Source of the DNA: Candidatus Nealsonbacteria bacterium
GTDB taxonomy: Bacteria; Patescibacteriota; Minisyncoccia; Minisyncoccales; RBG-13-42-11
Direction: 5' to 3'
DNA length: 64,000 bases
NCBI GenBank assembly: GCA_026396115.1
Contig: JAPLXL010000007.1
Location: forward strand, 6,565 to 70,564
Part shown: piece by piece, positions 22,143-22,364 of the stretch
Layout: every line of letters starts with the position of its first letter
How positions within the stretch are numbered: position 1 is the stretch's first letter
Position numbers and translations under genes: made by a program
Notes under the pieces: model-generated
Told to the model about the DNA's origin: nothing
Database searches by the model: none
What the model saw: the letters and a program-made list of their open reading frames with translations, nothing else

Positions 22143-22190
22143 TGATGTTTAGAGATACATTTTTTCGTAATATTTTATAAAAATAAAAAA

Positions 22191-22226
22191 CCCGCTCTTT
22201 TTTATCTCCTAAACGAAAAAAAGCGG
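22191..22226 (-). terminator. Intrinsic terminator of leader cassette copy 3
   Basis: Minus strand: CCCGCTTTTT - loop - AAAAAgAGCGGG + TTTTTTATTTTT. It lies 43 nt upstream of the ATG at 22142. Confidence 0.6.
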
Positions 22227-22273
22227 GAATGCTTTCAATTAACTGGAAACTATTTAAATTTTTCATTATTTTG

Positions 22274-22306
22274 TCTTTGTGATCAGACCTTAGTCCTCTC
22301 ACTCAG
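22274..22306 (-). promoter_or_regulatory. Conserved leader hairpin, copy 3 (diverged, with compensatory changes)
   Basis: Minus strand: cctgagtgagaggactaaggtctgatcacaaag. Outer stem GTGA/TCAC, internal GA/GA, inner stem GGAC/GTCT. Confidence 0.6.
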
Positions 22307-22335
22307 GAAAAAAACTTTTTATATTGGAATTATTT

Positions 22336-22364
22336 AATTATAATTTTATCAAAGTTACCTGTCA
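22336..22364 (-). promoter_or_regulatory. Sigma-70-type promoter, leader cassette copy 3
   Basis: Minus strand: TTGACA (22364..22359), 17-nt spacer, TATAAT (22341..22336). Confidence 0.75.

Follow-up and report, generated by a model that had tools for sequence, protein, structure and literature searches.

Several described leader systems let RNA polymerase pass an early intrinsic terminator or act ahead of a long biosynthetic operon. In the attenuator of the Escherichia coli pyrBI operon, a short promoter-proximal open reading frame (ORF) runs into or through the intrinsic terminator, tight coupling of translation to transcription would keep this terminator from folding, an alternative antiterminator hairpin being unnecessary; intrinsic terminators that lie within or just 3' of an ORF are suppressed by translating ribosomes (PMC4824070, PMC5021804). 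In the dfn and mln leaders of Bacillus velezensis, a hairpin with a UNCG tetraloop element is required for read-through, and the factor LoaP works without the ribosome (PMC12691694). In the phage systems lambda N/nut (boxB) and HK022 put, a promoter-proximal RNA hairpin acts in cis on polymerase for terminator read-through, processively over many kilobases, and RfaH with the ops (JUMPstart) element, UpxY in Bacteroides and the EAR element in Bacillus share a leader element placed ahead of a long surface-polysaccharide operon. Here we compare with these systems a leader element, hereafter the cassette, that occurs three times on the minus strand of a 64,000-nucleotide stretch of contig JAPLXL010000007.1 from Candidatus Nealsonbacteria bacterium (assembly GCA_026396115.1; the whole stretch is referred to as the window) and whose third copy heads a 15-gene glycosylation operon.

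We tentatively interpret each cassette as a local attenuator that depends on the ribosome. A sequence-only reading of the window had taken the third copy for a processive-antitermination leader, with the hairpin as the recognition site of a NusG-like factor. The leader part of that proposal is borne out by a structured leader RNA, an adjacent terminator, the position of cassettes at the head of glycosylation operons (window copy 3 and contigs L010, L022, L004 and L008; contigs other than the window are given as L with a number) and the joint loss of hairpin and terminator in one natural variant (L036); the part that invokes a processive NusG paralogue found no support.

A conserved leader RNA between promoter and terminator

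Each of the three cassettes consists of a near-consensus sigma-70 promoter, a rod-like hairpin of 32-33 nucleotides (nt) and an intrinsic terminator (coordinates in Table 1). This is the architecture that had been noted from the sequence, copies 1 and 2 included, save that some coordinates were one base off (the cassette 3 promoter, for instance, lies at 22365..22337 and not at 22364..22336). In cassette 3, 30 A/U-rich nucleotides lead from the promoter to the hairpin, for which the computed fold (dG -12.3 kcal/mol; 83% of the ensemble) comprises the helices CU/AG, GUGA/UCAC and GGAC/GUCU with two 2x2 purine loops between them. The compensatory changes among the three copies had also been read correctly: the outer stem goes from GUGG/CCAC and GUGG/CCAU to GUGA/UCAC, the inner one from GGAU/AUCU to GGAC/GUCU, and the internal loop from AA/AA to GA/GA.

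A degenerate pattern of the hairpin is expected to give no match in shuffled sequence, and R1, a covariance model of the hairpin plus its flanks, matched the window exactly three times, at the cassettes, with 18.5 bits as the next best score. When metagenome contigs of the Joint Genome Institute (JGI) were searched with an exact-type pattern, 21 loci were returned, of which 16 are genuine low-GC cassettes, with promoter, hairpin and terminator in the same order, and five are chance matches in high-GC coding sequence. Across 17 sources R1 found 22 copies (54-86 bits), three of them outside the search pattern (L006_9896, L016_5212 and L012_10160). By the names of their homologues, the organisms that carry cassettes are Patescibacteria/Parcubacteria (Parcubacteria bacterium DG_72, Ca. 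Staskawiczbacteria, Patescibacteria group). An exact-pattern scan of GTDB species genomes gave a single chance match inside a cyanobacterial coding region, and the scanned viral contigs one chance match, also in coding sequence. The cassette is absent from L025-L028, which carry homologues of the NTP_transferase that opens the window operon (77-88% identical), and from L029-L035, which carry homologues of the surface proteins (52-65% identical); these 11 loci without a cassette indicate that the element is confined to a narrow set of lineages. Among the Rfam 15 covariance models only those of tRNAs reached the gathering threshold in the window, and six cassette loci gave nothing at E <=0.5. 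The leader element is a family missing from Rfam and constitutes a new candidate family.

In the alignment of the 22 copies, standard pairs fill 98.5% of the cells (22-47% in slid registers), and RNAalifold independently gives the same ten pairs, six of which never vary. Pair 20-40 is either A-U or G-C (G-C in four sequences), essentially one event. Pair 26-34, for which the search pattern allowed all four combinations, is C-G in 12 copies and U-A in five, with U-G (one copy, L008) and C-A (two, in L019 and L006) as intermediates; it switches in at least three sub-lineages with differing flanks, and a one-sided Fisher test, calculated by hand and uncorrected for phylogeny, gives p ~0.007. Some copies gain a fifth pair, C-G or U-A. 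The terminal loop varies in length (3-7 nt) and sequence (UAAG, UUAA, AUUU, UUUUA, GAAAA and 7-nt variants; UUCG in L013 only); what is conserved is the stems, the purine internal loops and an invariant G-U pair. The variable loop, together with the invariant G-U pair, points to an RNA made from this strand and speaks against a DNA operator. Judged from the alignment, the hairpin is a conserved, structured and strand-specific RNA of the promoter-proximal leader. A kink-turn register for the GA loops was discarded, since pair 26-34, which covaries, could not form in it, and an enclosing helix, in which the U-rich 5' flank pairs with the start-codon region, does no better than shuffles in most lineages.

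Hairpin and terminator occur one to one, at a spacing that is fixed per type (51 nt or 38 nt). The terminator begins 36-51 nt 3' of the hairpin in 18 of the 21 distinct copies (L021 by eye), and the stems, with dG values of -8.5 to -17.6 kcal/mol across copies, are followed by U5-7. The hairpin begins 19-39 nt after the -10 box, and transcription from the promoter runs into the terminator in at least 16 copies. Besides the glycosylation operons named above, cassettes head clusters of secreted proteins (a family of ~300 amino acids (aa) with an ENTTT motif, a family with an N-terminal signal peptide and a C-terminal membrane anchor, the 213-aa family of the window, and others), and the same module stands ahead of single short surface-protein genes. 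Two full cassettes lie 253 nt apart in L016, one hairpin-terminator unit directly follows another without a second promoter in L012, and the L006_9908 module, which has no promoter, is located between two genes. In the cassette loci other than the window, the first gene of the operon encodes a surface protein or Wzx, and never a regulator. A separate conserved box, TGTTGTGTTTTGTC, is found ~10 nt 5' of the -35 hexamer in five type-3 cassettes (window 22372-22390, minus strand, and the equivalent sites in L016, L017, L020 and L005), where it might bind a transcription factor or act as an UP element.

The leader reading frame and its terminator

The sequence-only reading had overlooked an ORF that starts 11-12 nt after each of the window hairpins. 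A start codon (ATG; GTG in L009) is located 9-13 nt after the hairpin in 19 of the 21 distinct copies, with a spacer sequence that differs among lineages. Where start codon and terminator are both present (17 copies; L021 by eye), its frame is without exception free of stops up to the terminator's 5' arm; the other two frames of these copies usually contain one to three stops, and the ORF ends within or past the terminator hairpin in all 17, never before it. In cassette 3 its UAA stop falls 1 base ahead of an in-frame ATG of the first operon gene at 22130 (junction TAAAATGG), which is the second in-frame ATG of that gene, the first being at 22142. The start codon and the open frame into the terminator point to ribosome-mediated read-through, a process that the earlier reading had not considered.

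At two loci the ORF is fused to the gene that follows. In L006_10911 and L012_10301, the leader ATG is the sole in-frame start of a surface protein of 313-317 aa, whose hydrophobic signal-anchor begins directly 3' of the U-tract and can be aligned with its paralogues' signal peptides. The terminator here is inside coding sequence, so that ribosomes must read through it at these loci. Taken with the frames of the other copies, this makes it very probable that ribosomes translate through the terminator. The leader peptides contain no codon runs, and a search of the protein database for the leader peptide gave no candidates, which indicates that gene callers skip this ORF. One frequent peptide start, MKNLNSFRLIE (window 22246-22266, minus strand; also L010, L012, L016, L017 and L022), is reminiscent of the prepilin-peptidase motif G|FTLIE, which has Glu at +5; the similarity is probably a coincidence, the sequence being constrained as RNA.

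As for initiation, a simple motif scan finds no Shine-Dalgarno sequence at 48 of the 55 window genes, groEL and groES included, and the purine tract 3' of the hairpin need not be one. The position usually taken by the Shine-Dalgarno helix, 7-8 nt from the AUG, is occupied by the base of the hairpin. Elsewhere in the window, a TATAAT-like box precedes the ATG of lexA (29968) and that of the gene at 52443 by just 6-7 nt, which points to leaderless mRNAs.

The link between hairpin and terminator is illustrated by a natural variant. L036:1-192 is the leader of an orthologous glycosylation operon (NTP_transferase 84% identical), in which the hairpin is replaced and the 3' arm of the terminator is changed from GCGGG to GTGTT, the leader from ACAAAGA on being ~90% identical to that of the window. 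This joint loss indicates that the two parts are functionally linked. Folds of truncated transcripts gave no conserved or consistent partner for the 5' arm of the terminator before its 3' arm is transcribed, and an antiterminator fold that would compete with the terminator was thus not found. Since nothing competes for the 5' arm, read-through would need an agent that acts at a distance, either the ribosome or a factor. Attenuation of the trp/his type was rejected, there being no antiterminator structure in these folds and no regulatory codon runs, and so was a PyrR binding site (RF00515), of which the best match (20.1 bits against a gathering threshold of 54; E = 1.7) is noise and is followed by glycosylation genes.

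Proposed ribosome-gated attenuation and competing explanations

The explanation that we prefer, though only tentatively, is that each cassette acts in cis as a leader attenuator with local control over a single terminator, through the ribosome and with the help of the hairpin. Transcription would begin at the strong sigma-70 promoter or enter from an upstream gene, and the conserved rod-like hairpin would fold. The AUG, 11-12 nt after the GUGR/YCAY helix (7-8 nt after the outermost pair), would then open a short A-rich ORF that leads into the terminator. A ribosome that initiates promptly and trails the polymerase would cover the 5' arm, so that no terminator forms and the surface-protein or glycosylation genes are transcribed; without a ribosome, a leader transcript of ~130-150 nt would stop at the U-tract. 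The hairpin, beside the landing site of the ribosome, would be a positive or regulated determinant of initiation, and may itself recruit or position the 30S subunit or act as the operator of a putative RNA-binding factor.

With pyrBI the cassette thus shares the short promoter-proximal frame into the terminator and the dispensability of an antiterminator hairpin. However, a sequence-conserved hairpin precedes the start codon in the cassettes and has no counterpart in pyrBI, and no U-rich pause region for sensing nucleotide supply was identified. The cassette host also barely uses Shine-Dalgarno sequences, the 'leader' ORF at two cassette loci is the N-terminus of the regulated protein, and the targets are envelope and glycosylation genes rather than a biosynthetic pathway with an obvious metabolite signal. 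What is new here is a variant of leader attenuation.

Several observations weigh against ribosome-gated attenuation. The distance from the AUG to the U-tract (~70-95 nt) leaves a ribosome little room for loading and catching up, and no pause site was identified. The leader peptides are unconserved and indels in the U-run shift the frame, so that only the act of translation could matter. Some copies depart from the scheme: the orphan cassette of L021 (3950-4130, minus strand), with promoter, hairpin, 16-codon ORF and terminator, runs toward the 3' end of a convergent 416-aa gene on the opposite strand and has no co-oriented gene downstream; L019 has hairpin and terminator, without a start codon or a recognisable promoter; L014 has a hairpin with neither start codon nor terminator; and L008 has a hairpin and a 9-codon ORF without a terminator, so that the hairpin may serve a function independent of termination. 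As to the sample, the metagenome search pattern fixed most stem positions, which makes the invariance of six pairs partly a matter of construction, and several of the 22 copies are close relatives. The hairpin with its conserved pairing, the start codon, the frame open into the terminator, the terminator itself and the regulon are observed; the steps of the mechanism that go beyond this anatomy, namely suppression of termination by translation and the contribution of the hairpin, we infer from sequence.

The alternative that survives best, although we consider it unlikely, is that a trans-acting protein (a NusG paralogue like LoaP, an N-like protein or an unrelated RNA-binding protein) binds the nascent hairpin and makes the polymerase terminator-resistant, translation of the ORF being incidental. 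Conservation of the hairpin in both sequence and structure, especially of the purine internal loops and the invariant G-U pair, is typical of a protein recognition site; the hairpin works from afar, no antiterminator fold being in competition; its loss in L036 coincides with that of the terminator; and L019 retains both parts without a start codon. LoaP leaders also share the order of the parts (PMC12691694), with a small hairpin followed by a non-overlapping intrinsic terminator ahead of a long biosynthetic operon. Against this stand, to begin with, the hairpin itself, whose terminal loop is neither UNCG nor conserved, the internal purine loops being the conserved part, and the lack of a candidate factor. 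No loaP or other NusG paralogue was found near the cassettes: a tblastn search with E. coli NusG and RfaH in 30 sources (the window, 16 cassette-bearing contigs, 12 related contigs and L001) gave no match at E <2, albeit with low sensitivity, and Pfam scans of 49 window proteins revealed no NGN or KOW domain. None of the operons opens with a regulator gene; in the window, the leading gene encodes a sugar nucleotidyltransferase (NTP_transferase, PF00483) and not, as with UpxY, a NusG paralogue. Moreover, the module is present once per terminator, in tandem even without a second promoter, which would be superfluous for a processive complex, and it also stands before single genes. The earlier claim that 15 genes follow cassette 3 (22142..6194) with no terminator among them holds, with gaps of at most 44 nt and no convincing minus-strand terminator in a scan of the operon; these 16 kb thus offer a processive complex nothing to override. 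A conserved, predicted-translated ORF that covers the terminator sets the cassettes apart from LoaP leaders, and a factor would leave the start codon, the open frame and the two in-frame fusions unexplained.

The other processive systems fare no better in comparison. The ops element GGCGGTAGNNTG has no match with up to two mismatches in 22142..22365 or in the other two leaders, the Rfam models of JUMPstart and EAR give no match at E <=10 in 22100..22480, and EAR gives none at the gathering threshold. Unlike the phage systems, the cassettes have no boxA-like element, N-like gene or two-stem put architecture, as tested by Rfam only. Taken together, the absence of internal terminators, the one-to-one and tandem modules, the use before single genes, the variable loop and the lack of ops, JUMPstart or EAR argue against the processive NusG-type action proposed from the sequence.

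Quite improbable, in our judgement, is the possibility that the hairpin is an mRNA stabiliser, a processing site or a translation element for highly expressed envelope genes and that the terminator is a separate, leaky insulator of the upstream operon. It would accommodate the hairpins without a terminator in L008 and L014, the fact that the terminators of cassettes 1 and 2 are the first ones after upstream operons, and a candidate promoter (5981..5954) after the copy-2 terminator. However, an insulator is expected before the promoter, which here fires into the terminator, and neither the fixed spacing of hairpin and terminator nor their joint loss in L036 suits two separate elements; the hairpin is also located away from the 5' end of the transcript. 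Still less credence is due to the cassette as a free-standing small gene, for a trans-acting small RNA of ~130-150 nt or a small peptide, with downstream expression by incidental read-through. Although the cassette is a complete unit with its own promoter and terminator, is present in multiple copies per genome and occurs as an orphan in L021, the next gene is co-oriented and close in all cases save that one, promoterless copies lie between cistrons or straight after the terminator of another cassette, the peptide is unconserved and shifts frame, the ORF is the start of the downstream protein at two loci, and no candidate target complementarity was found. Finally, a DNA operator for a dimeric transcription factor 3' of the promoter, suggested by an imperfect palindrome at ~+15 to +60 relative to the promoter, is hardly credible, because half-site spacing varies (loop of 3-7 nt), the invariant G-U and the U-G intermediate would be mispaired as DNA, the palindrome holds at only 7 of 10 positions and some copies have no promoter.

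The cassettes in their genomic surroundings

The features of the three cassettes in the window and the genes that follow them are compiled in Table 1.

Table 1. Cassettes of the window and the genes they precede (all positions in window coordinates).
Feature	Position	Strand	Details
Cassette 3 promoter, TTGACA-17-TATAAT	22337..22365	-	12/12 consensus; top promoter-like site within 5-25 kb
Cassette 3 hairpin CUGAGUGAGAGGACUAAGGUCUGAUCACAAAG, loop UAAG	22275..22306	-	32 nt; covariance model R1, 81.4 bits
Cassette 3 leader ORF, 44 codons, begins MKNLNSFQLIESIPAFF	22132..22266	-	Passes through terminator; translation inferred
Cassette 3 intrinsic terminator	22185..22227	-	Stem 22227..22191, 12-13 base pairs, CCCGCUUUUUUU.../...AAAAAAGAGCGGG; U6 at 22190..22185; dG -15.5 kcal/mol
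15-gene glycosylation/polysaccharide operon	6194..22142	-	3' of cassette 3; intergenic gaps <=44 nt; ORF list and Pfam
Cassette 2 promoter, TTGACA-17-TAAAAT	6109..6137	-	11/12 match
Cassette 2 hairpin, GUGG/CCAU, GGAC/GUCU, loops AA/AA and GA/GA	6055..6086	-	R1, 58.1 bits; fold
Cassette 2 leader ORF, 28 codons, begins MRNQQKKKYPAEF	5961..6047	-	Passes through terminator
Cassette 2 intrinsic terminator, CCCGCU...GGCGGG and U6	5985..6020	-	Also first terminator 3' of the 15-gene operon
Genes 3' of cassette 2: secreted LamG/Laminin_G_3 protein, LytR_C protein, DUF6541-like membrane protein	2190..5922	-	Pfam
Cassette 1 promoter, TTGACA-17-TAAAAT	2110..2138	-	11/12 match
Cassette 1 hairpin, GUGG/CCAC, GGAUU/AAUCU, loops AA/AA and GA/AA	2051..2083	-	R1, 66.6 bits; fold
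Cassette 1 leader ORF, 29 codons	1954..2043	-	Passes through terminator; stop 5 nt before ATG at 1948
Cassette 1 intrinsic terminator, CCCGCC...GGCGGG and U6	1981..2016	-	Sequence and fold
Genes 3' of cassette 1: 213-aa secreted protein with dockerin/EF-hand-like end (fam3); DUF5018-repeat surface protein (fam5, cut by window end)	1..1948	-	Pfam

By Pfam, the operon behind cassette 3 encodes an NDP-sugar pyrophosphorylase, a Wzx-type flippase, GT2 and GT4 transferases, a DegT aminotransferase and an oxidoreductase, together with proteins of the ATP-grasp, HAD, methyltransferase and UDP-glucose dehydrogenase families. The operon gene listed at 20129-21502 (minus strand) shares 122 nt with the gene before it when read from its TTG start; the gene call for L001, an identical contig, sets a later start, which gives a more plausible protein of 424 aa. 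The fam3 and fam5 families of cassette 1 also follow cassettes in L013 and L017 and occur within cassette-headed clusters of L006 and L009. Immediately 3' of the copy-2 terminator and ahead of the LamG gene, TTGAAA-16-TACAAT (10/12) at 5954-5981 (minus strand) is a candidate second promoter that could drive attenuation-independent expression. Copies 1 and 2 have ~200 nt in common, and a transposable-element origin, such as a miniature inverted-repeat element, was considered and dismissed, as no terminal inverted repeats were seen.

Four gene-end intrinsic terminators of the window (22912-22938, 25366-25377, 26926-26937 and 27592-27603, minus strand) have an identical 3' arm and tail, GGCGGTTTTTTG, and may mark a repeated terminator unit. 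They indicate that the organism uses canonical intrinsic terminators, and the gene-end terminators of the contig have the same form as that of cassette 3. The window also encodes an RpoD-type sigma factor (33430..34674), DnaG, GroEL/ES and LexA, which marks it as bacterial DNA.

Other recurrent features were seen around the surface clusters. Among the loci without a cassette, the surface-cluster leader of L029 (9735-9850) carries four direct GAAGCUC repeats, with a fifth near 9945, and two terminator-like hairpins, and that of L032 (3735-3795) carries two, the last of which overlaps the 5' arm of an intrinsic terminator; from their sequence, these leaders of cassette-less Parcubacteria look like a different, protein-binding attenuator for the same genes. 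A 93-aa ACT-like protein of the TM1266 family is encoded within cassette-bearing surface clusters (L006:5930-6211, L009:10646-10927 and L013:2381-2662) and seems to be missing from the L029 cluster, which has no cassette; this makes the protein a candidate ligand-sensing partner. Single-domain response regulators and histidine kinases (with seven-transmembrane (7TM) or PAS domains) recur near surface clusters (window 42306-44375, minus strand; L029, L030 and L032), and in L032 a 132-aa receiver-only protein is encoded directly 5' of the cluster leader. Elsewhere in the window are a pair resembling a cyclic-oligonucleotide-based antiphage signalling system (CBASS; 28017-29508, minus strand), comprising a SMODS-family nucleotidyltransferase (28612..29508) and a Cap15 cyclic-dinucleotide receptor effector (28017..28628), and a pair of a DNA methylase and a TdeIII restriction enzyme (30614..32974).

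The Patescibacteria, or Candidate Phyla Radiation, have tiny genomes with few recognisable regulators and a lifestyle that depends on the cell surface; to our knowledge, almost nothing is known of their gene regulation. A broader proposal, which we advance with reserve and regard as somewhat doubtful, is that the cassettes represent an undescribed, regulon-wide class of attenuator in this radiation, in which a terminator in a translated leader, or for some genes within the sequence coding for the N-terminus, would be opened only by a close ribosome, a dedicated hairpin of conserved sequence at the Shine-Dalgarno position would recruit that ribosome or bind a new regulator, and surface proteins and glycan machinery would be tied to one signal. 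The cassettes would define a regulon that joins clusters of secreted surface proteins to a 15-gene glycosylation operon. The element, at ~150 nt, is a concrete and testable cis-element, and may show translation-termination coupling in an organism that hardly uses Shine-Dalgarno sequences.

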